From a virus (Duplodnaviria > Heunggongvirae > Uroviricota > Caudoviricetes), in the IMG/VR virus record IMGVR_UViG_2609460354_000010, positions 1 through 11,476 of that record: DNA of 11,476 bases; one strand, 5' to 3'. Below the pieces are notes generated by a model. The model saw only the letters and a list, made by a program, of their open reading frames with translations. It was not told where the DNA came from and ran no database searches. Of this stretch, positions 40-11,476 are shown piece after piece. The position numbers were made by a program, and so were the translations under genes. Numbering within the stretch: the stretch's first letter is position 1; the number at the start of each line of letters is the position of its first letter.

Positions 40-402
40 GGGGCTGATTCTGGATTCGACGGGATTTGCGAAACCCAAGGTGCATGCCGAGGGGCGGTTG
101 GCCTCGTAAAAAGCCGCAAAAAATAGTCGCAAACGACGAAAACTACGCTTTAGCAGCTTAATAACCTGCTTAGAGCCCTCTCTCCCTAGCCTCCGCTCTT
201 AGGACGGGGATCAAGAGAGGTCAAACCCAAAAGAGATCGCGTGGAAGCCCTGCCTGGGGTTGAAGCGTTAAAACTTAATCAGGCTAGTTTGTTAGTGGCG
301 TGTCCGTCCGCAGCTGGCAAGCGAATGTAAAGACTGACTAAGCATGTAGTACCGAGGATGTAGGAATTTCGGACGCGGGTTCAACTCCCGCCAGCTCCAC
401 CA
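40..402 (+). ncRNA. ssrA: tmRNA (transfer-messenger RNA, SsrA), 363 nt, E. coli type
   Basis: Begins GGGGCTGATTCTGGATTCGACGGG and ends GGTTCAACTCCCGCCAGCTCCACCA (tRNA-like acceptor/T-arm and CCA), matching E. coli tmRNA as I recall it. It contains the internal tag reading frame. Confidence 0.96.
129..161 (+). other. tmRNA tag-peptide reading frame (resume codon GCA; encodes ANDENYALAA, stop TAA)
   Basis: GCA AAC GAC GAA AAC TAC GCT TTA GCA GCT TAA read directly from the sequence; this is the canonical enterobacterial degradation tag. Confidence 0.9.
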
Positions 403-435
403 CTTGCTCTTCCGGATACGTCCGGAGAAATCCTG

Positions 436-470
436 AAAGCCCGCATGGCACAAGCTTTGCGGGCTTTTTT
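436..470 (+). terminator. Rho-independent terminator downstream of ssrA
   Basis: AAAGCCCGCA (436-445) pairs with TGCGGGCTTT (458-467) around a 12-nt loop, followed by a T-run (465-470). Confidence 0.6.
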
Positions 471-515
471 GTGTCTACCGTTGTCCGAGGATATCCAGCT
501 AAATCCAGTGATTAT

Positions 516-566
516 TGGTATACGTTTAGGTATACGGTAGGATATATACCTAAACGCGTATACCAA
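516..566. repeat. Imperfect palindrome (TTGGTATACGTTTAGGTATA / TATACCTAAACGCGTATACCAA) upstream of int; candidate Int arm-type or operator site
   Basis: The two arms are reverse complements except for a 2-nt insertion (CG). They end about 20 bp upstream of the int start and overlap where an int promoter would lie. Confidence 0.45.
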
Positions 567-586
567 TTCATGAAGGAGCGGCCAAA

Positions 587-1783
587 GTGGCAAGAACGAC
601 ACGCCCCCTGACCAACACAGAAGTTCTGCGCGCTAAAGCGTTAGAAAAGGATCTAACGTTGCATGATGGCGATGGTCTTTTTCTGCTCGTTAAAACGAAC
701 GGTAAGAAGTTATGGCGTTTCCGTTATCAACGTCCAGCAACAAAACAGCGAACAATGATGGGGCTAGGTGCCTTCCCCACCCTTTCACTTGCTGACGCCC
801 GACGGTTAAGAGCGAATTACCTTTCCTTGTTAGCCAACGGAATTGACCCGCAAATTCAAGCTGAAATTGCAGTGGAACAGCAGCAAATCGCACTGGACAG
901 TATTTTTTCAACCGTCGCCGCTAACTGGTTCCAGCTTAAAAGCAAAAGCGTTACCCCTGATTACGCAAAAGACATTTGGCGCTCACTGGAGAAAGATGTA
1001 TTTCCTGCCATTGGTGAGATTCCCGTTCAGCAAATCAAAGCCCGAGCATTGGTTGAAGCACTTGAGCCAATCAAAGCTCGTGGGGCACTCGAAACAGTTC
1101 GTCGTCTAGTGCAGCGTATTAACGAGATAATGATTTATGCAGTTAACACTGGTTTGATTGATGCTAACCCTGCATCTGGTGTTGGCATGGCTTTTGAGAG
1201 ACCTAAAAAGAAAAATATGCCGACTTTACGACCGGAAGAACTACCTAAGCTGATGCGCTCTTTGGTTATGTCAAACTTGTCTGTTCCGACGCGTTGTCTT
1301 ATTGAGTGGCAGCTCCTGACCCTTGTGCGCCCTTCCGAGGCTTCCGGTGCTCGGTGGGCAGAGATCGATCTCGATGCAAAGCTCTGGACTATTCCAGCCG
1401 TACGGATGAAAGCGAAGCGTGAGCACATTGTACCGCTATCTCCTCAGGCATTAGAGATTCTGGAAGTGATGAAGCCAATCAGTGCTCATCGTGAACATGT
1501 TTTTCCGAGCAGAAATGATCCCAAAAAACCGATGAACAGCCAAACTGCGAATGCTGCTTTGAAGAGAATTGGGTATGAAGGTAGGTTAGTAGCTCATGGG
1601 TTGCGTTCGATTGCGAGCACTTACCTGAATGAATCAGAATTTAATTCAGATATTATTGAGGCAGCATTGGCTCACGTCGATAAAGATGAAGTAAGACGAG
1701 CCTATAATCGTACAACTTACTTGGCGCAGCGAGTAGAATTAATGAATTTTTGGGGCTTAAAGATAAAGAGTGAGAAACTATAG
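587..1783 (+). CDS. int: Tyrosine recombinase / phage integrase (P4-type), 398 aa
   Basis: GTG start with AAGGAG 8 nt upstream. The C-terminal region has the HxxR box (HGLRS) and a candidate catalytic Tyr (AYNRTTY). It lies directly beside the tmRNA gene. The 3' end is AT-rich like the downstream cargo. Confidence 0.93.
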   Translation: MARTTRPLTNTEVLRAKALEKDLTLHDGDGLFLLVKTNGKKLWRFRYQRPATKQRTMMGLGAFPTLSLADARRLRANYLSLLANGIDPQIQAEIAVEQQQIALDSIFSTVAANWFQLKSKSVTPDYAKDIWRSLEKDVFPAIGEIPVQQIKARALVEALEPIKARGALETVRRLVQRINEIMIYAVNTGLIDANPASGVGMAFERPKKKNMPTLRPEELPKLMRSLVMSNLSVPTRCLIEWQLLTLVRPSEASGARWAEIDLDAKLWTIPAVRMKAKREHIVPLSPQALEILEVMKPISAHREHVFPSRNDPKKPMNSQTANAALKRIGYEGRLVAHGLRSIASTYLNESEFNSDIIEAALAHVDKDEVRRAYNRTTYLAQRVELMNFWGLKIKSEKL

Positions 1784-2959
1784 ATGAAATTTGAATCAAC
1801 ATCGTTAGTCAACATTATCACAGGTAATAATGGGTCAGGGAAAAGTTCGATATTAGCTGAAATTTCAAAGCAAGAATACGTTACAGGAAAAAATGTAATA
1901 TGCTTATCAAACACATCAACCAATAAATTCCCCAAAATAAAAAGCCATCGTTTTCACATTCTTAATCAGTCATCTAACACACTTACCAAAGCATTAAAAA
2001 AAGTTGTAGTAAGCAATAGTCACAATAAGATCGGGTCATCGCACGCACACATTTTCCCAAGAGTATTGGCGTATTTAGATTTCAATGAGCAACTCACATT
2101 TAAATTTACAATCTTCCCTTATGAAAGTTTCATTAGAAAATTTCAATCCGAGATGTACAACAATGAGTTAATCGGTAGTGATATCGATGAAATAACGAAT
2201 CACTTAAGAAATCTAATCGAAATAAACGATGACACTGCTAGCTCTACTGATCATGGAGTGAAAGGCTCTCACATACTTTATTTGGAGTATGCTTTCACAT
2301 ATGAATCAGAAAAAAGAATTAACACCATTCATAATCGCCTCATTGAACTAATGTTAAAGCATGAGCGCATTCTAAAAAAGAACCATTTAATACATGACAT
2401 TGAAATAACCTTAAGTCGTGGCCATAGTATAATACCATCATCTCATTTAAGCTCTGGTGAAGCGTGCTACATGGCAACACTTGCTTTTATCCTTACATAT
2501 ATATCGGATAACAGCGTAATAATAATTGATGAGCCAGAGAATAGTTTACATCCTCGTTGGCAAAAAAAATACACATCAAACCTTCTGGATCTATTATATT
2601 ATTTCGACATAAGAATAATATTAGCGACACATTCACCAATGATTGTTATAGGGGCGGTAGAAGACCATAGTGGCCTAAGTGTTTTCAAATCCGAAAATAG
2701 TACCCTTTCTCCCCTTGAAGGAAATGAAACTAATATTGATGAAGTAATGGTGGATGTGTTCGGTGTATTAACGTCAAGAAGCAGATATTTCAGCTACAAG
2801 ATAAATGAGATTCTTAATGAATACAACAATAAAAAAATAGATATAAATTCAGCACGCGACAAATTAAATAAAACAAAATCACTCGGGCCTGATGAAAGCC
2901 AAGTAAAAATAATTGAAGCAGCCAATGAAATATTAAATCAGATGGTGAAAAATGCCTAA
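1784..2959 (+). CDS. ABC-type (SMC/RecF-like, AAA15/AAA21-like) ATPase, 391 aa; PtuA-like candidate defense ATPase
   Basis: Walker A GNNGSGKSS (res 14-22, K20 codon 1841-1843), ABC signature-like LSSGE (222-226), Walker B IIIDEPE (246-252), H-loop LATHSP. The ATG follows the int TAG with no gap. The gene is AT-rich. Confidence 0.88.
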   Translation: MKFESTSLVNIITGNNGSGKSSILAEISKQEYVTGKNVICLSNTSTNKFPKIKSHRFHILNQSSNTLTKALKKVVVSNSHNKIGSSHAHIFPRVLAYLDFNEQLTFKFTIFPYESFIRKFQSEMYNNELIGSDIDEITNHLRNLIEINDDTASSTDHGVKGSHILYLEYAFTYESEKRINTIHNRLIELMLKHERILKKNHLIHDIEITLSRGHSIIPSSHLSSGEACYMATLAFILTYISDNSVIIIDEPENSLHPRWQKKYTSNLLDLLYYFDIRIILATHSPMIVIGAVEDHSGLSVFKSENSTLSPLEGNETNIDEVMVDVFGVLTSRSRYFSYKINEILNEYNNKKIDINSARDKLNKTKSLGPDESQVKIIEAANEILNQMVKNA

Positions 2960-3548
2960 CTTCACATTTACAGCAGAGAATATCTCTCATATCCGCACTG
3001 CTATATCCGAAAATAAACTCGATGACAAAGTAAAGGTGTGGGAGCACAAATTGCTTAAATCCATGAGAAGAGAACTCAAACAATATATTCTTTCCAACCG
3101 TAATGATGGTTTCAAATGTGCTTATTGCTTAAAGGATTTCCATAATGAACACAATATGAATATTGATGTTGAACACATTCTCCCCAAGTCACAATATCCA
3201 GAATATACGTTCACACTTAAAAATTTAGCGGTGGCCTGCAAGAGATGTAACCTATTAATAAAGAGAAATGATGTTTCATTTTTAAATGCTAACTTCATAA
3301 GAAAAAAACCGTTTAACTCAAAATATTATAAAATATTCCATCCTGTTATCGACAGAAAAAATCACTTATCTCTTCTGGATGTCCATTTTAATGGGTGCCA
3401 CATTATCAAGTATCAAACAAATAGTGAAAAAGCAAACAACACCTACATTTACTTCAAGTTAAATGAAGTTGAGATAGAAACATTAAACAACGCACAAGGA
3501 ATAGAACAGATAATTGATTTACTTCACACATACAACCCAAGAAATTAG
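2952..3548 (+). CDS. HNH-family endonuclease (HNN variant with CxxC...CxxC zinc-finger), 198 aa; PtuB-like candidate effector
   Basis: C56-x2-C59, catalytic-type His in DVEHILP (H75, codon 3174-3176), N91, C96-x2-C99-N. The start overlaps the ATPase stop by 8 nt (ATGCCTAA), indicating translational coupling. Confidence 0.88.
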   Translation: MPNFTFTAENISHIRTAISENKLDDKVKVWEHKLLKSMRRELKQYILSNRNDGFKCAYCLKDFHNEHNMNIDVEHILPKSQYPEYTFTLKNLAVACKRCNLLIKRNDVSFLNANFIRKKPFNSKYYKIFHPVIDRKNHLSLLDVHFNGCHIIKYQTNSEKANNTYIYFKLNEVEIETLNNAQGIEQIIDLLHTYNPRN

Positions 3549-3568
3549 AAACAAAACAATATCTAATT

Positions 3569-3587
3569 AGCCGCCACAAGGCGGCTT
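3569..3587. terminator. Hairpin between convergent genes (candidate bidirectional terminator)
   Basis: AGCCGCC-ACAA-GGCGGCT stem-loop flanked by AT-rich sequence, located between the HNH gene end (3548) and the minus-strand small gene end (3596). Confidence 0.5.
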
Positions 3588-3595
3588 CTACTCAA

Positions 3596-3820
3596 TTAGC
3601 CTTTGGATTTTTTTGGATCATCTTTCCGCTGATAAGTACGCTCTTCCTGAAATCGCCCGTCCTCTTTGTGGATTTTAACCGAGCCTGTTTTATCAGTCAT
3701 ATATTCTTGCATTTCTCTGACAATCTCATTTTTAGTCGTCGCCGTCTTACTTGGTCTTTCATTACCTTCTTTCTGAAGTTTCCATTTATCACCATCCTTA
3801 GTAATGTGATATTTATCCAT
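3596..3820 (-). CDS. DUF2188-like small protein (74 aa from the ATG at 3820; the ORF track gives a TTG-initiated 78-aa form)
   Basis: The motif pattern H-I-T-K-DGDKW-K-KEG...IHKEDGRFQEERTY resembles the DUF2188 family as I recall it. GGAGG lies 5-6 nt upstream of the internal ATG (MDKYH...), so the shorter start is favoured. Confidence 0.65.
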   Translation of the reverse strand: MDKYHITKDGDKWKLQKEGNERPSKTATTKNEIVREMQEYMTDKTGSVKIHKEDGRFQEERTYQRKDDPKKSKG

Positions 3821-4032
3821 TAGAACCTCCAAATGTAGTTAGACATATGAGATGACAGTAAAAATTTTATACGGAAAGAGGCACTAGATTTGTGCCATAA
3901 CTCTCATTCTGAAAATACGCCTCCGATAAACACAATAAATGACATTGGCAACTTATCGACGGTTGGTATTACTGCATCTACATATCGCATACCTGAGATC
4001 ATATTAATATTACGTTCAACCGCTAGCGCGCA

Positions 4033-4051
4033 ATGCTTTCCCCGCCTCGCC
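4033..4051 (-). other. cos site: P2/P4-type 19-nt cohesive end sequence (18/19 match)
   Basis: The minus strand reads GGCGAGGCGGGGAAAGCAT against the P2/P4 cohesive end GGCGAGGCGGGGAAAGCAC as I recall it. It sits between the cargo islet and psu, as expected for an integrated P4-like element. Confidence 0.75.
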
Positions 4052-4074
4052 CGCCCGCTTTGCGGGGCGGTTTT
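4051..4074 (+). terminator. GC-rich hairpin plus TTTT immediately next to cos
   Basis: CCGCCCGC-TTT-GCGGGGCGG followed by TTTT; it would stop plus-strand read-through from the cargo islet. Confidence 0.4.
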
Positions 4075-4153
4075 AATGCAGTTGCACTGACACGCTCAGA
4101 CCGCGCCGGGAATGGTGCGGTCTGCAGAAAATGAGGCAGGAAAACGCATGCAA

Positions 4154-4185
4154 AGCCATGCACCTTATCGATGCATGGCTTTTTT
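4154..4185. terminator. Hairpin with flanking T/A runs between cos and psu (candidate bidirectional terminator)
   Basis: AGCCATGCA (4154-4162) pairs with TGCATGGCT (4172-4180), followed by TTTTT on the plus strand; on the minus strand the hairpin is followed by TTTGCATGCGTTTT. The psu stop is at 4216. Confidence 0.5.
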
Positions 4186-4215
4186 CAGTAAAAACGGGCG
4201 GATTTTCGGGGAATT

Positions 4216-4788
4216 TTACACAGACTGACGTGATGCCAGTTGCGCACTTTTACGCGAAAAAATCATGTTCTGCGCAGGAGTGAATTTTTCACGGCTGTCA
4301 TCCACCGAAGCCGCGTCAGGCCTGAATCCGATGGCCGTTAAAATGTCGCTATCCTGTACGGAATAATTAATTTTTTCACCCTTCGCAAGCCAGGACAGAA
4401 GGGCTTCACGCAGGGCATCTGTGGCACGCTGTATGGCACAGTTTCGGGCAATGGCCGTCAGCTCACTGTAGCCCATCAGCTCCGGTGCCAGTGCCGCCGC
4501 CAGTGCTGTGCCGTGCTGCTGCATAAAATCATTCAGCCGGTCGCGGATGCTGATGTGCTGAACGGCTTCATGCGAACGAATATAACGACCGGCGGCCTGA
4601 TTCACCTGCCATTTTCTGACTTCGATAATATTGCGTAATTCGTCCAGGCGACTGACGTTTCTGCCTTCTCCTGACTGAAGCCGCAGATATTCCTGTTCGG
4701 CCGCTGCCAGCTCATTTTTGCGTTGCAGCCATGCTGCTTTGTTATTCTGACAGGTGTCAAAGGCCTGCTGTAAGGCTGTGCTTTCCAT
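4216..4788 (-). CDS. psu: Polarity suppression protein Psu (capsid decoration / Rho antagonist), 190 aa
   Basis: 190 aa, the same length as P4 Psu; the sequence (MESTALQQAFDTCQNNKAAWLQ...) matches P4 Psu as I recall it. It is the last gene of the sid-delta-psu operon. Confidence 0.92.
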   Translation of the reverse strand: MESTALQQAFDTCQNNKAAWLQRKNELAAAEQEYLRLQSGEGRNVSRLDELRNIIEVRKWQVNQAAGRYIRSHEAVQHISIRDRLNDFMQQHGTALAAALAPELMGYSELTAIARNCAIQRATDALREALLSWLAKGEKINYSVQDSDILTAIGFRPDAASVDDSREKFTPAQNMIFSRKSAQLASRQSV

Positions 4789-4861
4789 CGTTATCTCTTT
4801 CTCATCATGCTGAAGAATAAAAATACGGTGTGCGGCGACGGCCGGGGTTAACCGGCAGCCC

Positions 4862-5362
4862 TCATTCCAGACGCAGCGAATATGATTGTGTTTTTAACCG
4901 TACTGGCGGCAGTTCCTGTTTTTCATGCAGGCGTTCTGCCAGTTCGTCCGGTGTGACCGGGCGGACAATGAAGCGGTTGATGGTCTGAAGCGTTTTAAAC
5001 ACCAGACCACAGCCCGGATCCGTGCACACATAAAAACGTTCGGTGACTTCCTGAGACAGACGCCGCGATGTTCTTGACAGTGCAAGGCCTTTACATCTCC
5101 GACAACAATATCCGGTAACAAGCATTCTTTTCGGGCGTTTCATACTGCCGGAGGCAGAAGTCAGTGAATCGCGGTATCTCTGTTTGCCTGAAATGTATTC
5201 CATTCCTGAATCTTTACTGTCAGAGAAAAAGCTTTCACTCGCTTCAAATGTCGCAGAGCAATAAATATTCCGGCACTGTGCAATCATTATCTTGGTGCCA
5301 TCGTCCATGAAATGTGCGCGGCGGGTGTGAGCAACATGTCCACACGACGGGCAGTAAATCAT
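4862..5362 (-). CDS. delta: Delta late-gene transcriptional activator (Ogr-family zinc finger, duplicated), 166 aa
   Basis: Begins MIYCPSCGH...CRNIYCSATF (Ogr/Delta Cys4 motif) and a second Cys-rich repeat follows. 166 aa as in P4 Delta. The start overlaps the sid stop (ATGA). Confidence 0.92.
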   Translation of the reverse strand: MIYCPSCGHVAHTRRAHFMDDGTKIMIAQCRNIYCSATFEASESFFSDSKDSGMEYISGKQRYRDSLTSASGSMKRPKRMLVTGYCCRRCKGLALSRTSRRLSQEVTERFYVCTDPGCGLVFKTLQTINRFIVRPVTPDELAERLHEKQELPPVRLKTQSYSLRLE

Positions 5363-6093
5363 GACAGCAGTCCTCTGGCCTTAAGCTCTGCTCCCTGCTG
5401 GTCTATTTTGTCCTGCCACACCTTGCGCTGTGCCGGTGTGCCTGCCACCTCATAATCCATGTGCGGAAGTGTTGCCGCTGACAGTCCGGTCAGCCGGAGA
5501 ACCGGCTCGCCGGTGAGGCTGATTTGCATCTGTTTAATTTTCTGTTCCAGCGATGATTTCACCTGCTGCATGACAGCCTTTTCCGGTGCGACGTAGCCCT
5601 GATGGCCGGTGGCGTTGGCGAGCGGATTTTCCTGTACCAGAATGCTCAGATGCATTGCCCGGACAAGCGCCTCACAGGTTTCATTCAGGGCGTGTTCCAG
5701 CTCATGCTCTGCATACAGGCTCAGCAGGTGATGGTGTGCCTTCCGGTAGGCGGTGGCCGTGCTGTCACACGCCCCTTTCAGGCGTTCGCGTTCAAAATTC
5801 AGCACCACGGCCAGATTGTCATATTCCTGTACCAGCTCCCGGCGTGCCACGCGCTCAATGTGGCGCTGTTTCAGCTCGTCGCTCAGGACACCACCGGCTG
5901 CACGAAAGGCCGTGCGCCAGTCGTCAGCGTCGTTTCCGTCGGCCTGCGCCAGCGCATTTTTTTCCTGCTCTGCCCGTTCAATGGCCGTGACGGTCTCATC
6001 CATCAGGCGGGCGTTCTCAAGATGAGCGGCTCTGGCCTTTTCCAGTTGTGCCAGCGCGGGTTGCAGATATTCAGGGATGGTGTTGTCAGACAT
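5359..6093 (-). CDS. sid: Sid capsid size-determination (external scaffold) protein, 244 aa from the ATG at 6093
   Basis: The ORF track starts at a GTG (6111), but GAGGAG lies 7 nt upstream of the internal ATG (MSDNTIPEY...), giving 244 aa as in P4 Sid. The protein is coiled-coil rich. Confidence 0.9.
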   Translation of the reverse strand: MSDNTIPEYLQPALAQLEKARAAHLENARLMDETVTAIERAEQEKNALAQADGNDADDWRTAFRAAGGVLSDELKQRHIERVARRELVQEYDNLAVVLNFERERLKGACDSTATAYRKAHHHLLSLYAEHELEHALNETCEALVRAMHLSILVQENPLANATGHQGYVAPEKAVMQQVKSSLEQKIKQMQISLTGEPVLRLTGLSAATLPHMDYEVAGTPAQRKVWQDKIDQQGAELKARGLLS

Positions 6094-6127
6094 TTTCCGG
6101 CTCCTCGTCACTTCAGGTTAAGAAAAT

Positions 6128-6183
6128 TGTGACGTACACCGGACAACAACACGACGCATTGCAGATGTGCCAGCCCTGACACA
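6128..6183 (-). promoter_or_regulatory. Psid-like late promoter with two TGT-N12-ACA activator (Delta/Ogr) sites
   Basis: TGTgacgtacaccggACA (6128-6145) and TGTgccagccctgacACA (6166-6183), centres 38 bp apart. Placing them at about -18 and -55 predicts a minus-strand start near 6119, 26 nt upstream of the sid ATG. Confidence 0.6.
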
Positions 6184-6262
6184 GGAGACTCATCCTCAGA
6201 CCGGCAAGCCAGGAAAAGGTCGCAGGAAAAACCGGCTTACTGTTTGTTTTTTTATATTTTAC

Positions 6263-6366
6263 TGTTCACCTCTGTTCACCATAAGAAAAAAGATAAGTAA
6301 TACAGTAAGTTAAAGGGTGAACAATCGCAGTAATGACTGTTCACCGTCTGTTCACCACTGTTCACC
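6263..6366. repeat. Iteron cluster: six copies of TGTTCACC (five direct, one inverted); crr/ori-type alpha-binding repeats
   Basis: Copies at 6263-6270, 6273-6280, 6317-6324 (inverted, GGTGAACA), 6338-6345, 6349-6356 and 6359-6366, spaced about 10-11 bp within clusters. TGTTCACC is the type I iteron bound by P4 alpha. An AT-rich tract follows (6370-6470). Confidence 0.75.
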
Positions 6367-6524
6367 CGTTGATGGGCTTTTTGTGCTGTTTATTACTTTT
6401 TATTTTTATTAATTCACTGAAATAAATAAGAAAAAACAATTTGTATTTCACTATAATTTTTTCCAGCTCCTTCCAGAGCGTTTTAAAGCTATCTGGCGCT
6501 GATGTACAAAAAATACACAGCCAT

Positions 6525-6542
6525 TGTAAGGCTGCCGGAACA
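6525..6542 (+). promoter_or_regulatory. Candidate PLL-like late promoter activator site (TGT-N12-ACA) upstream of vis
   Basis: TGTaaggctgccggaACA, with a degenerate second site (TGC-N12-CAA, 6561-6578) 36 bp downstream. Predicted plus-strand start is near 6588; the vis ATG is at 6645. Confidence 0.4.
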
Positions 6543-6644
6543 AATCCCCCCTGTTGCGTCTGCCGAAAATATTCACAAAATAAAGCGCTACCCGAAGCCG
6601 GACGGACTTATCCGGTGCTGTATGGACATTAACGAGGTAGCCCG

Positions 6645-6911
6645 ATGCAAGCTGTTTTTTCTTCCCCGTCTCCCGCCCCTGTGACGCCACTGATGCCGCT
6701 GCCGGACATCACGCAGGAGCGTTTTTTACGTCTGCCGGAAGTGATGCACCTGTGCGGCCTGTCACGCTCGACCATCTACGAACTCATCCGTAAGGGGGAA
6801 TTTCCGCCGCAGGTGAGTCTTGGCGGTAAAAATGTGGCCTGGCTGCACTCTGAAGTCACCGCATGGATGGCCGGGCGCATTGCCGGACGCAAACGGGGGT
6901 ACGACGCGTGA
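6645..6911 (+). CDS. vis: AlpA/Vis-family HTH regulator (excisionase-like), 88 aa
   Basis: HTH core [42 protein letters not shown] is typical of the AlpA/Vis family. GAGG lies 7 nt upstream of the ATG. Its position between the late promoter and the immunity region matches P4 vis. Confidence 0.8.
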
Positions 6912-6946
6912 TGATACCCGTCCTGCAAAAACTCCCTTTTTCTGGC

Positions 6947-6976
6947 TTGCCTTTTTCCGGCATTTGCGGATATAGT
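6947..6976 (+). promoter_or_regulatory. Candidate sigma70 promoter (PLE-like): -35 TTGCCT, 18-bp spacer, -10 TATAGT
   Basis: Hexamers read from the sequence; located between vis and the immunity leader. Only a motif match, not verified. Confidence 0.3.
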
Positions 6977-7002
6977 TTTTCCGCTGCCGCAAAATCGGCA
7001 GC

Positions 7003-7288
7003 CGGGCGTGAGAACCCGAGCAATTCACAGGCGACATATGACGCGCCACGCGTCTTTTTTTGTGTCGCAATCAATGCCACAGAGCGCCAGATTATGGTGT
7101 GGTGTGTGGTCAGTCGTGCAGATGGCATTCCGTGCATCCTGCCCGCGTCCGCTCATTATGCCGCAGAGTCAATGGTAGCTCAGGCGGGGCAGCCTCCGGG
7201 CTGGCCGGTATCCTGTGAAGCCGGTATTCTCACCCCCGTCTGGGCTATCGCCATCGAGCGTGAGAACTCCGGCGATAGCGTTATTTGC
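7003..7288 (+). ncRNA. Candidate P4-type RNA-immunity leader region (seqA/seqB/seqC-like elements and terminator hairpins); exact RNA ends unknown
   Basis: Direct repeat GCGTGAGAAC at 7006-7015 and 7258-7267. A segment at 7220-7233 (GCCGGTATTCTCAC) is complementary to both in 12 of 14 positions. Hairpin plus T7 at 7040-7061 (GACGCG-CCA-CGCGTC-TTTTTTT). Hairpin GCTATCGCC/GGCGATAGC (7244-7279) followed by TTATTT. No convincing coding frame across 6912-7309. Confidence 0.3.
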
Positions 7289-7309
7289 TATTCACAGGAG
7301 GCTGCCATC

Positions 7310-7507
7310 ATGGCTACAACCCTTACCCCCTCACACCCTGAATTTGTCTTTGTGTTTGCGGCTGTCCGTCGCACAGACCGTCATCCCCGTATCTGTATGC
7401 TTCGCACCGTCGCCGGTGATGAACGCAGCGCCCGCCGTTCCCTTGTCCGTGACTATGTGCTCTCCCTTGCTGCCCGTCTGCCGGTGGTGGAGGTGTCCCG
7501 TGCGTAA
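7310..7507 (+). CDS. kil: Small protein, 65 aa; Kil-like by position and size
   Basis: AGGAGG lies 8 nt upstream of the ATG and third-position codon bias is strong. It is the first gene after the immunity leader. The name is assigned from P4 synteny and size only. Confidence 0.6.
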
Positions 7508-7787
7508 TAAAAAAGCCCCTCAGACCGTCTCAGCGCGTCATGACGCCCGTGAACACCTCAGCATTGAGGCTTACCATAAGCTCAACCGCGCCAGCGCCGT
7601 ATCCCAGTTTGTTGGGGGTGATTTGATTCACCGTGAACTCTCCGGCCTGCATCAGCTCTACATTCCGCATATTTTCAGTTACCTGAATGAAGATATTGAT
7701 TTTGTGCTGAATGAGCTGAAAGCCAAAGGCCTGTGCCGCGATTTTCTCGCCCAGCAGAAAGACCGGGGAGACAGGACGCATGTTTGA
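7500..7787 (+). CDS. epsilon: Small protein, 95 aa (GTG start); epsilon-like (antirepressor) by position
   Basis: GTG start 6 nt after GGTGGAGG, overlapping the kil stop; coding-like codon usage. The ORF track's longer 190-aa version has a low-complexity N-terminus that overlaps kil and the leader. The name is by synteny only. Confidence 0.55.
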
Positions 7788-8235
7788 TTTTCCCCAGCCC
7801 GGTGAGATTTACCGTTCTGCCGGTTTTCCCGATGTGGCCGTGGTCGGCATTCTGGAAGACGGTATTCCGTGGGAAATGCCGTACCGCTGCCCGGACATTG
7901 TCTGGAACCCGTACCGCCGTAAATTCAGTATCCTTGTGCGTATCCTCGCTGACGGACGCACCACAGACATCCCGCTGGGGCGTTTTCTGCGGGAATTTAC
8001 CTGTGACCGTCCTGACCTGTTTAAACGCAGCCCCGTAAACCGGCATGCGGTACTGAAAGAAATGGCCGGAGACCCGGAATTACAGAAATGGCGGGAAAAA
8101 TATCTGGATATTTACCCGCAGGCCCCTGTTCCGGTCAGCCGGGCGGCACCGGTGGCGCGGGAATGGCGGGAAATTCCCCGCACGGAGCCTGACCCGGAAA
8201 TCACCCCGGATAACAGTTACCGCAATTATCTGTAA
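7780..8235 (+). CDS. Conserved hypothetical protein, 151 aa (P4 orf151-like)
   Basis: The ATG overlaps the upstream stop (ATGTTTGA), indicating translational coupling. Size and position match P4 orf151 as I recall it. Confidence 0.7.
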   Translation: MFDFPQPGEIYRSAGFPDVAVVGILEDGIPWEMPYRCPDIVWNPYRRKFSILVRILADGRTTDIPLGRFLREFTCDRPDLFKRSPVNRHAVLKEMAGDPELQKWREKYLDIYPQAPVPVSRAAPVAREWREIPRTEPDPEITPDNSYRNYL

Positions 8236-8370
8236 TTAAAAAACGACACCCGAAAAATTAAATGTGCGTATTCGCGCAGGGATACGCACGTCTTCAGGAG
8301 ACGCAGATATGCCTTATCAGTTAATGCAACCGGCACGGAATGCAGTCATCTGTCACAGGGAGGAAAGCAA

Positions 8371-8691
8371 ATGAAAACCCCCTTACCGCCCGTCTTACGC
8401 GCAGCCCTTTACCGTCGCGCTGTCGCCTGTGCCTGGCTGACCGTGTGCGAACGTCAGCACCGCTACCCGCATCTCACCCTTGAATCACTGGAGGCGGCCA
8501 TCGCCGCTGAGCTGGAAGGCTTTTATCTGCGCCAGCACGGTGAGGAAAAAGGGCGTCAGATAGCCTGTGCCCTGCTGGAAGATTTAATGGAATCCGGCCC
8601 CCTGAAGGCCGCGCCGTCGCTGTCCTTTCTCGGGCTGGTTGTGATGGATGAACTCTGTGCCCGTCACATAAAAGCGCCGGTACTGCACTGA
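8371..8691 (+). CDS. cnr: 106-aa protein immediately upstream of alpha; Cnr-like (copy number regulation)
   Basis: GGAGG-containing RBS before the ATG; 106 aa, directly preceding alpha as for P4 cnr (orf106) as I recall it. Confidence 0.65.
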
Positions 8692-8705
8692 AGGAGAACA
8701 ACACC

Positions 8706-11039
8706 ATGAAAATGAACGTAACCGCCACCGTCAGCCATGCACTCGGCCACTGGCCGCGTATTCTCCCGGCGCTGGGGATTCAGGTGCTGAAAAACCGTCA
8801 TCAGCCCTGTCCGGTCTGTGGCGGGAGTGACCGCTTCCGTTTTGATGACAGGGAGGGGCGCGGCACCTGGTACTGCAATCAGTGTGGTGCCGGTGACGGC
8901 CTGAAACTGGTTGAAAAGGTGTTTGGTGTTTCCCCGTCCGACGCGGCCACAAAGGTGGCTGCCGTGACCGGCAGTCTGCCCCCGGCTGACCCGGCAGTGA
9001 CGGCCGCCGCCGTTGCTGAAACAGAAGCCGCCCGGAAGAACGCCGCCGCACTGGCACAAACCCTGATGGCGAAAACCCGTCCCGGAACCGGTAACGCCTA
9101 CCTGACCCGCAAGGGCTTTCCCGGCCGGGAATGCCGGATGCTGACCGGCACACACAGAGCCGGTGGCGTGAGCTGGCGCGCCGGTGACCTTGTGGTGCCA
9201 CTGTATGACGACAGCGGCGAACTGGTTAACCTTCAGTTAATCAGTGCTGACGGCCGTAAGCGCACCCTGAAAGGCGGACAGGTCAGGGGCACCTGTCACA
9301 TCCTTGAAGGACAGAATCAGGCCGGAAAACGTCTGTGGATAGCGGAGGGATACGCGACCGCACTTACCGTACATCACCTGACCGGTGAAACGGTGATGGT
9401 GGCGCTTTCTTCCGTGAACCTCCTTTCTCTGGCCAGCCTTGCCCGGCAGAAGCATCCGGCCTGTCAGATTGTCCTTGCCGCAGACCGTGACCTCAGCGGT
9501 GACGGCCAGAAAAAAGCCGCCGCAGCCGCAGATGCGTGTGAGGGTGTTGTTGCCCTGCCGCCGGTCTTCGGTGACTGGAATGATGCCTTCACGCAGTACG
9601 GCGGGGAAGCCACCCGTAAGGCCATTTATGATGCCATCCGGCCACCGGCTGAAAGCCCGTTCGACACCATGAGCGAAGCGGAGTTTTCCGCCATGAGTAC
9701 CAGCGAAAAGGCCATGCGTATCTATGAGCATTACGGCGAGGCGCTCGCGGTCGATGCCAACGGCCAGCTTCTGTCCCGCTATGAAAATGGTGTCTGGAAG
9801 GTGCTGCCGCCACAGGACTTTGCCCGGGATGTGGCCGGGCTGTTTCAGCGGCTGCGTGCGCCGTTCTCCTCCGGGAAGGTGGCCTCCGTGGTGGACACCC
9901 TGAAGCTGATTATTCCGCAGCAGGAAGCCCCCTCCCGCCGCCTGATTGGCTTTCGTAACGGCGTGCTCGACACGCAGAACGGCACGTTCCACCCGCACAG
10001 TCCGTCACACTGGATGCGCACCCTGTGCGATGTGGATTTCACCCCGCCGGTGGAAGGGGAAACGCTGGAAACCCACGCCCCCGCGTTCTGGCGCTGGCTT
10101 GACCGTGCCGCCGGTGGCCGTGCGGAAAAACGCGACGTGATTCTGGCCGCACTGTTTATGGTGCTGGCAAACCGCTACGACTGGCAGCTCTTTCTGGAGG
10201 TGACCGGTCCCGGCGGCAGCGGCAAAAGTATCATGGCCGAAATAGCCACCCTGCTGGCCGGTGAGGATAACGCCACGTCGGCCACCATCGAGACGCTGGA
10301 ATCCCCGCGTGAACGTGCCGCGTTAACTGGCTTCTCACTGATACGCCTGCCGGACCAGGAAAAATGGAGCGGCGACGGAGCCGGACTCAAGGCCATCACC
10401 GGCGGCGATGCAGTGTCCGTTGACCCGAAATACCGGGATGCGTACTCCACGCACATCCCGGCGGTGATTCTGGCCGTGAACAATAACCCGATGCGCTTCA
10501 CCGACCGCAGCGGCGGCGTGTCACGCCGGCGGGTGATTATTCACTTCCCGGAACAGATAGCCCCGCAGGAGCGCGACCCGCAGCTTAAGGACAAAATCAC
10601 CCGCGAGCTGGCGGTCATCGTGCGTCACCTGATGCAGAAATTCAGCGACCCGATGCTCGCCCGGTCACTGCTTCAGTCCCAGCAAAACTCAGACGAGGCG
10701 CTGAACATCAAACGGGATGCCGACCCGACGTTTGATTTTATCGGCTATCTGGAAACCCTGCCGCAGACCAGCGGCATGTATATGGGGAACGCCAGTATCA
10801 TCCCGCGTAATTACCGTAAATACCTCTATCACGCCTATCTGGCCTACATGGAGGCAAACGGCTACCGGAATGTACTCAGTCTGAAAATGTTCGGGCTGGG
10901 GCTGCCGGTGATGCTGAAGGAATACGGACTGAATTACGAGAAGCGCCATACCAAACAGGGGATACAGACCAACCTGACGCTGAAAGAGGAAAGCTACGGC
11001 GACTGGCTGCGTATTACCGTGAAGGAGATCGGTGAGTAA
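8706..11039 (+). CDS. alpha: Alpha replication protein (primase-helicase with C-terminal origin-binding domain), 777 aa
   Basis: 777 aa, as for P4 alpha. N-terminal zinc-binding CPVCGG...CNQCGAG (primase zinc finger), Walker A GPGGSGKS (helicase), AAGGAG RBS. The TGTTCACC iterons it would bind are at 6263-6366. Confidence 0.95.
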   Translation: MKMNVTATVSHALGHWPRILPALGIQVLKNRHQPCPVCGGSDRFRFDDREGRGTWYCNQCGAGDGLKLVEKVFGVSPSDAATKVAAVTGSLPPADPAVTAAAVAETEAARKNAAALAQTLMAKTRPGTGNAYLTRKGFPGRECRMLTGTHRAGGVSWRAGDLVVPLYDDSGELVNLQLISADGRKRTLKGGQVRGTCHILEGQNQAGKRLWIAEGYATALTVHHLTGETVMVALSSVNLLSLASLARQKHPACQIVLAADRDLSGDGQKKAAAAADACEGVVALPPVFGDWNDAFTQYGGEATRKAIYDAIRPPAESPFDTMSEAEFSAMSTSEKAMRIYEHYGEALAVDANGQLLSRYENGVWKVLPPQDFARDVAGLFQRLRAPFSSGKVASVVDTLKLIIPQQEAPSRRLIGFRNGVLDTQNGTFHPHSPSHWMRTLCDVDFTPPVEGETLETHAPAFWRWLDRAAGGRAEKRDVILAALFMVLANRYDWQLFLEVTGPGGSGKSIMAEIATLLAGEDNATSATIETLESPRERAALTGFSLIRLPDQEKWSGDGAGLKAITGGDAVSVDPKYRDAYSTHIPAVILAVNNNPMRFTDRSGGVSRRRVIIHFPEQIAPQERDPQLKDKITRELAVIVRHLMQKFSDPMLARSLLQSQQNSDEALNIKRDADPTFDFIGYLETLPQTSGMYMGNASIIPRNYRKYLYHAYLAYMEANGYRNVLSLKMFGLGLPVMLKEYGLNYEKRHTKQGIQTNLTLKEESYGDWLRITVKEIGE

Positions 11040-11083
11040 CGGCGTTTTTCAAGGTAGTTGTCGCCTTTTGTAATAAAATTACG

Positions 11084-11476
11084 TTATGCAGCCTCTTTTT
11101 CTGGATTCAGGTAGACTTCTGATATGTAGTCCCAGTTACGTAGATGCTTTCCCCAACGTTCAGGATGCTGTTCGCGTGCCAGCTGGTATACTGCTTTTCT
11201 GGCCGCCAGTATTTTCATATCATTACCTTGATGACGCTCGGCTGGCGTGACGTATTTGATCCCGCTGTGCTTATGTTCAAAGTTGTACCAGTTTACAAAA
11301 CGGTTTACCCATATTCTGGCATCATTAATAGTGCGAAAACCGTTCTCAGGCCACCAGGGACAATATTTGAGAGTCCGGAACAAAGATTCTGAGTAAGGAT
11401 TATCATTGCTGACTCTTGGCCGGGAATAAGAACTTAGCACACCAAGCGCATACATTTTCGCCAACAACGTGTAACT
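11084..11476 (-). CDS. IS3-family DDE transposase (OrfB), C-terminal part; gene continues beyond the window edge
   Basis: DNPYSESLFRTLK resembles the IS3-family catalytic-Glu region, with a C-terminal ...YVTPAE... tail. The reading frame is open to the window end. GC content differs from the satellite backbone. Confidence 0.8.
   Translation of the reverse strand, partial: SYTLLAKMYALGVLSSYSRPRVSNDNPYSESLFRTLKYCPWWPENGFRTINDARIWVNRFVNWYNFEHKHSGIKYVTPAERHQGNDMKILAARKAVYQLAREQHPERWGKHLRNWDYISEVYLNPEKEAA

Follow-up and report, generated by a model that had tools for sequence, protein, structure and literature searches.

P4-like satellites share a core gene set made up of int, psu, delta, sid, alpA, epsilon and alpha (de Sousa & Rocha, PMC8628076), and the psu–int interval, adjacent to cos, is a hotspot for defence genes in which Septu is one of the systems listed (Rousset et al. 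2022, PMC9122126). The P4 cos site, which has 19-nt ends, is enough for P2/P4 to package plasmids of 5-10 kb (PMC2231350, PMC9942202). Three articles (PMC2231350, PMC5694545, PMC3931495) credit Ziermann & Calendar 1990 with the definition of a cos core of ~55 bp.

The window, i.e. the whole stretch of 11,476 nt analysed here, coincides, at 100% identity, with the final 11,476 bases of contig JNPG01000055.1 (assembly GCA_000703745.1). Direct comparison with P4 (NC_001609 / X51522) shows that window positions 4052-11010 are colinear with P4 11624-4665, with 98.1% identity over 6960 bp, and Pfam searches, gene calls and this colinearity together reveal the full P4-like core set in the conserved order. 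The minus strand carries psu (4216-4788, 190 aa, Pfam Psu E = 3.7e-88, in DNA that is ~98% identical to P4), delta (4862-5362, 166 aa, Pfam Ogr_Delta, colinear with P4) and sid (5359-6093, 244 aa as called, identified by gene calling and colinear with P4 sid). On the plus strand lie (i) vis/AlpA (6645-6911, from annotation); (ii) the CI/C4 RNA immunity region (6970-7255), in which Rfam recognizes the C4 antisense RNA, isrK and the c4 a1/b1 targets; (iii) epsilon, orf151 and orf106 (~7500-8691, from annotation); and (iv) the alpha primase-helicase gene (8706-11039), whose product of 777 aa is identical to P4 alpha at 761 of 768 residues and ends with nine residues derived from an insertion sequence (IS). 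The P4 CI-RNA immunity region is apparently intact and is located inside a 214-aa ORF of the Ash family (6863-7507). Siblings of the element, with 98.7-99.6% identity and a length of ~11.2 kb, occupy this ssrA site in eight complete E. coli genomes. Altogether, the window is nearly the whole of a P4-like satellite prophage inserted at ssrA, with defence cargo lodged between int and cos.

The ssrA (tmRNA) gene (40-402, plus strand; ARAGORN, Rfam) is followed by a terminator that holds a putative attL core, TGCGGGCTTTTTT (458-470), the whole feature spanning 40-470. This 13-mer occurs twice in a sibling of the element that is devoid of the IS (L006, positions 3453 and 14691), the two copies being 11,238 bp apart. 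It corresponds to the 3' half of the ssrA terminator hairpin, and the attR of the sibling restores a shorter terminator; arm-type repeats of the form ATTGGTATACG(T/A)TTAGGTATACG are found on both sides of the element. Beside ssrA lies the gene for a tyrosine integrase of 398 aa (587-1783, plus strand; Pfam Arm-DNA-bind_3, Phage_int_M and Phage_integrase), followed by the Septu cargo (1784-3548, plus strand), which consists of the overlapping ORFs ptuA (1784-2959, PADLOC PtuA E = 4.9e-162) and ptuB (2952-3548, PADLOC PtuB E = 8.2e-86). A PtuA ATPase and a PtuB HNH nuclease, the pair by which Septu is recognized, are thus encoded in one operon. Between ptuB and cos, the minus strand carries a DUF2188 gene (3596-3820, 74 aa as called; Pfam DUF2188 E = 2.5e-16, PADLOC PDC-S16 E = 6.8e-12). 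This gene, a match to the PADLOC candidate family PDC-S16, co-travels with the Septu module.

In GenBank, the P4 and P2 entries open with GGCGAGGCGGGGAAAGCAC and that of phage 186 with GGCGTGGCGGGGAAAGCAT. The first-pass annotation had pointed to an 18/19 match to the P2/P4 cohesive end on the minus strand of the window, and such a match is found exactly at 4033-4051, where the 19-nt sequence GGCGAGGCGGGGAAAGCAT differs from the P2/P4 end only at base 19, which is T instead of C, T being the base of phage 186. A chance match can be ruled out, as the 19-mer occurs only once in the window, with shuffled sequences giving an expectation of 0.01 at <=3 mismatches, and as it sits exactly where the ends of P4 join, the right end of P4 (11624) corresponding to window position 4052. 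Moreover, the junctions of P2, P4 and 186 can be aligned base for base with that of the window. Written as right arm, 19-mer and left flank, the window junction is ...CCGCCCCGCAAAGCGGGCG / GGCGAGGCGGGGAAAGCAT / TGCGCGCTAGCGG, its counterparts being ...TGCATTAAAACCGCCCCGCAAAGCGGGCG / GGCGAGGCGGGGAAAGCAC / CGCGCGCAAACCG in P4, ...CCGCCCCGTGAAGCGGGCG / ...GCAC / TGCGCGCTGACGG in P2 and ...CCGACCCATAAAGTGGGCA / GGCGTGGCGGGGAAAGCAT / TGCGCGCCAGAGG in 186. If the cut geometry annotated for cos in phage 186 is applied here, the predicted nicks, at 4052|4051 (minus strand) and 4033|4032 (plus strand), would leave 5' overhangs.

To place this site among its relatives, we used two samples drawn from IMG/VR and the GTDB genomes: 86 loci chosen by the presence of a Psu homologue alone, six of which were contributed by the genome-contig search, and 120 loci chosen for a match to bases 1-18 of the 19-mer, base 5 being left free. 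A cos-like 19-mer lies ~164 nt past the psu stop codon in every Psu-selected locus that extends far enough (81/81), with a variation of ~1 nt among close relatives, which makes cos a constant component of such satellites. The conservation profile of 168 unique cos regions, P2-like and P4-like, delineates a conserved block that reads TGCAaCTGCATTAAAACCG.CCC....AAGCGGGC., then the 19-mer, then TGCGCGC. In the window, the corresponding core of ~57 bp spans 4026-4082 on the minus strand (TGCAACTGCATTAAAACCGCCCCGCAAAGCGGGCG, the 19-mer and TGCGCGC), and its extent is consistent with the 55-bp core credited to Ziermann & Calendar 1990. At none of the columns conserved in >=90% of the 168 regions does the window deviate. 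The 19-mer itself conforms to the general form GGCG(A/T)GGCGGGGA(A/G)AGCA(C/T), each of its bases being a state found in natural P2-like or P4-like sites.

The same profile rules out a degenerate terminase-recognition flank, the outcome that alignment to the P2 and P4 cos regions could have revealed. As for base 19, T occurs naturally in 186, which is a functional phage, and whichever base is present will pair with its complement at the other end of the molecule, so that the sequence gives no reason to expect a defect. The P4-end junction, the constant offset from psu and the lack of deviation at conserved columns all bear out the description of the locus as an apparently intact P2/P4-type cos; we consider it very probable that this is a genuine, sequence-intact cos site belonging to a P4-like satellite, and cleavage and packaging would be expected to occur at it.

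The psu side of the site contains three hairpins, at the positions that the first-pass annotation had assigned to them. The accompanying description of a cos flanked by structured elements holds as regards the presence of these hairpins, but has to be re-read as regards their nature: hairpin 1 belongs to the core, hairpin 2 varies between lineages and hairpin 3 is the psu terminator. Hairpin 1 (4051-4070) is a G+C-rich imperfect palindrome followed by TTTT on the plus strand, and is called a plus-strand terminator by the terminator scan. It can be dismissed as a significant structure: its folding z-scores with respect to shuffled sequences are -0.5 and -1.0, and one arm alone is conserved in phages, where the left arm varies and the right arm, AAGCGGGC, is near-invariant, which indicates that the sequence and not the pairing is conserved. 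Hairpin 2 (CAGACCGC/GCGGTCTG, 4097-4124) folds with z-scores of -4.7 and -3.4 and is followed by no T-run on either strand. In an alignment that includes L080, L014 and L087, most satellite lineages display a stem-loop at this position, with stems that differ, one lineage having a register-shifted perfect stem of ~10 bp; P2 is devoid of a stem-loop there, 186-type phages have a related palindrome, and the median z-score of the phages is ~0. Hairpin 2 is thus, as judged from folding and alignment, a lineage-variable stem-loop that satellites appear to keep as a structure. Hairpin 3 (4155-4185, minus strand) is the terminator of psu, i.e. of the sid operon: it begins 36 nt past the psu stop codon, consists of a stem (4155-4179) followed by T6, has T-runs on both sides and folds with z-scores of -4.3 and -5.3. 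The psu terminator of P4 is identical to it.

Hairpin 3 overlaps a cluster of three TGCAT-type repeats (4149-4176), with TGCA at 4149, 4159 and 4172; further TGCA copies in the window are located at 4123, 4083 and 4077. Counted from the nick, these six positions correspond to -101, -111, -124, -75, -35 and -29, respectively. Among unique sequences, TGCA is found at -124, -111, -101, -35 and -29 in 77-99% of the satellite-like ones, and at -111, -101, -35 and -29 in 56-95% of the P2-like phage ones, -124 falling below the 40% reporting threshold in the latter; the two class labels come from a fuzzy psu-terminator motif, so that some 186-like phages are misfiled in these percentages. The window has TGCA at each of these shared positions (-124, -111, -101, -35 and -29). 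In the -160 to -100 bin, the number of TGCA copies is 2.5-3.0, to be compared with 0.23 expected, and some phages (among loci L094-L213) contain four tandem copies of TTGCATTA with a spacing of 10 bp. We propose that the TGCAT repeats are candidate terminase recognition elements, possibly binding repeats for the small terminase subunit; in the accessible literature, we found no description of TGCAT repeats at -100 to -125 as a small-terminase binding array.

Another account, which we regard as unlikely, is that the hairpins are transcription signals and nothing else, serving as a terminator of psu and as insulation of cos against transcripts of the cargo, with no part in packaging. The location of hairpin 3 just downstream of psu and its T-runs on both strands agree with this account, as does the terminator call for hairpin 1 and its TTTT, which faces transcripts coming from the cargo side. 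However, the TGCA repeats in and near hairpin 3 keep their distances from the nick in P2-like phages, which have no psu and whose sequence is otherwise unrelated; hairpin 1 falls within the conserved core, and shuffled sequences fold just as stably; and the missing T-run sets hairpin 2 apart from a terminator. Besides, roles in transcription and in packaging are compatible with each other.

Our proposal is framed in terms of a packaging region that has two parts: positions 4026-4082 constitute the cos core, and the ~100 nt on its psu side (to ~4180) would form an extension common to the helper phages. On the model of established P2/P4 biology, from which we infer the sequence of events, excision and alpha-dependent replication would yield a covalently closed satellite circle; a helper of the P2/186 type would then supply its terminase (gpM as the small subunit, gpP as the large one), which would recognize the cos region and nick each strand once, with a stagger of 19 nt, at 4052|4051 (minus strand) and 4033|4032 (plus strand); and the resulting linear DNA would be threaded into small capsids remodelled by Sid.

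The T at base 19 sets the window apart from most of its relatives. In the 120 sites sampled by their 19-mer, bases 5 and 19 are strongly linked: 84 sites have A...C (the P2 type), 34 have T...T (the 186 type), and only two have A...T, as in the window. One of these two is a phage-sized contig of 29 kb (L139), which contains the exact window 19-mer. Of 5426 complete genomes of E. coli, 13 contain the exact 45-mer around cos, and 875 contain it at 95-99% identity (~1 mismatch). All the examined carriers of the allele that combines T19 with a 186-type flank possess the same int-PtuAB-DUF2188 module.

This allele also differs on its cargo side. The left flank of cos (4004-4032, minus strand) is 186/Eganvirus-like: over 30 nt, it matches Eganvirus-type phages of Yersinia and Klebsiella at 24 positions, versus 15 for P4, and its score from +8 to +30 is 18/23, shuffled flanks reaching 15 at most. 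A phage-like left flank is likewise present in only 1 of 58 unique satellite flanks, a comparison in which the Psu-selected loci alone were taken as satellites. BLAST matches to phages end at window position 4004. On the opposite side, the psu-side arm is identical to that of common P4-type satellites that have C19. These features suggest that the cos is chimeric, a P4-type backbone and a module with base 19 as its first position having been brought together by a crossover inside the cohesive end; a point mutation at this base combined with a fortuitous similarity of the flank is a less likely origin for the same allele.

We tentatively take the crossover hypothesis further, in a reading to which we give somewhat better than one chance in three: the cos would be a recombination scar, with a crossover between bases 6 and 18, and, as a separate matter, the TGCAT repeats might be a small-terminase binding array common to all P2-like phages and their satellites. 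On one side of the crossover would lie the P4-type right arm and backbone, and on the other the T at base 19, the 186-type flank, the DUF2188 gene, Septu and the ssrA-specific integrase. If so, DNA would be exchanged at cos itself between helper and satellite, or between satellites with different cos types, and cos would be one of the homology anchors for the swapping of defence cargo. The DUF2188 protein has no match at 1e-5 in the phage collection, and there is thus no evidence for a phage origin of the cargo.

Further variation of the cohesive end is seen among satellites. Divergent P4-like satellites from Enterobacter, Citrobacter, Tatumella and Kluyvera, whose Psu is ~60% identical (L009-L013, L087-L092), have a distinct 19-mer, GGCGTGGCGGGGAGAGCAT, and that of a Photorhabdus satellite is GGCGTGGCGGGGATAGCAT. 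A few P4-type backbones of E. coli also carry GGCGTGGCGGGGAGAGCAT, which means that cos alleles and backbones reassort.

Could the allele instead be specific for a helper? In this hypothesis, T19 and the 186-type left flank would shift specificity towards terminases of the 186/Eganvirus type, so that packaging would be efficient with that lineage only. The linkage between bases 5 and 19 and the scarcity of the A...T combination (2/120) fit with such a shift, as do the fact that the bottom-strand nick adjoins base 19 and the 24/30 resemblance of the left flank to Eganvirus-type phages. Nevertheless, the right arm, which bears the conserved repeats, is of the P4 type, and P4, which has C19 and a left flank of its own, uses both P2 and 186 as helpers. 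In addition, satellite sequences are highly variable past +7, hence the left flank is probably dispensable. We therefore hold a helper-specific allele to be quite improbable.

From the intact cos, the first-pass annotation had gone on to conclude that the element can be packaged by a P2-like helper and its cargo mobilized. The premise stands; the conclusion does not follow for this copy, as an IS3-family element is inserted in alpha and an intact cos alone does not show that the copy can move. The end of this IS occupies 11002-11476 (minus strand), where the C-terminus of a transposase runs off the window, which is also the end of the contig. The region is 99.8% identical to IS3-family copies present in many E. 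coli genomes, and its gene contains an rve_3 domain. Neither P4 nor any sibling shows homology beyond 11010, which is 29 nt short of the alpha stop codon, and the IS starts at ~11002; at the protein level, the alignment with P4 alpha ends at residue 768 and the final nine residues are replaced. The source contig stops within the IS, and crr and attR lie beyond the end of the window and contig. A search of metagenome contigs for the alpha-IS junction gave 0 matches. In another copy of this IS, the inverted repeats are ~1.67 kb apart; a simple insertion of ~1.7 kb into the 11.24-kb sibling would bring the element to an estimated length of ~12.9 kb. By comparison, the IS-free sibling measures ~11.24 kb and P4 11.6 kb, and the capacity of the small capsid is quoted as ~12 kb (Rousset et al. 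2022, PMC9122126).

Related remnants retain cos but not the P4 backbone. In E. coli S43 and MB06022 (L216 and L217), only the segment corresponding to window 389-4143 is left, with 99.97% identity: int, Septu, DUF2188, the cos core and hairpin 2 are kept, and the TGCAT cluster and all of psu...alpha are gone. Since both strains retain the same cos and cargo without the backbone, the presence of cos alone is no evidence of mobility, and an intact-looking cos can sit in an immobile remnant. A truncated AIDA-repeat pseudogene adjoins the breakpoint in these two strains.

In line with these remnants, the window might represent an immobilized, decaying satellite, in which the site can be cut and the cycle is blocked, cos being a relic and Septu effectively chromosomal; we rate this as a serious possibility, if somewhat short of an even chance. 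The IS may damage alpha, whose last nine residues it replaces, may separate the element from crr and attR or remove them, or may push its length beyond the capacity of the small capsid, as the ~12.9-kb estimate suggests. The abrupt end of P4 and sibling homology at 11010, with IS3-family sequence up to the contig end, and the two strains that hold on to cos and cargo without a backbone point in the same direction. Moreover, a 2026 survey (PMC13586616) reports next to no transposable elements in P2/P4 elements, a rarity that would be consistent with selection against insertions in mobile copies. On the other hand, the rest of the element in the window shows no damage and has 98% identity to functional P4, suggesting that the insertion is recent, and replication functions could be supplied in trans, or heads of P2 size could accommodate the DNA. 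On balance, we put the odds that this copy can still be mobilized at about even. The IS-free siblings (~11.2 kb) do look mobilizable from their sequence.

An intact cos is thus necessary but not sufficient for mobilization, as illustrated by the IS in alpha here and by the sister loci that have cos without the backbone. More generally, the Septu system described here sits in a known cos-adjacent satellite hotspot, a route by which defence cargo spreads between enterobacteria, and the chimeric allele and the TGCAT repeats could guide work on DNA recognition by terminases of the P2 family and on cargo exchange at the hotspot.

Compared to P4, the locus shows 98.4% identity over 249 nt in the psu-side arm, 18 of the 19 cohesive-end bases, the same location of cos after psu-delta-sid and a hairpin 2 that is the same bar two substitutions. 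The differences lie at base 19 (T in the window, C in P4), at base +1, where the window has T, as do P2, 186 and most satellites, and P4 has C, a rare state, and in the cargo-side flank, which is unrelated to the gop side of P4 (15/30). Besides, the integrase and the attachment site (ssrA) are not those of P4, and the cargo is Septu plus DUF2188 in place of gop-beta-cII. Compared to 186 and Eganvirus-type phages, the window has in common the T at base 19 followed by TGCGCGC, a left flank that is similar over ~30 nt, and the TGCAT cluster, the GGCGCGG motif and TGCAACTGCATTAAAACC at equal distances from the nick. It differs from 186 at base 5 (A in the window, T in 186) and in its right arm, which is of the P4 type (CCGCCCCGCAAAGCGGGCG, with CCGACCCATAAAGTGGGCA in 186), and from both 186 and Eganvirus-type phages by the lack of phage genes beside cos. 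Finally, with int, a variable defence cargo, cos and psu, and with Septu among the systems listed, the locus matches the hotspot of Rousset et al. 2022 (PMC9122126), from which it departs by a rare chimeric cos allele tied to a cargo module and by the IS3-family insertion in alpha. The locus type is therefore one that has already been described (Rousset et al. 2022), and what is new in this instance is mildly so: a cargo-linked chimeric allele that is rare, the conserved placement of the TGCAT repeats and an IS insertion.
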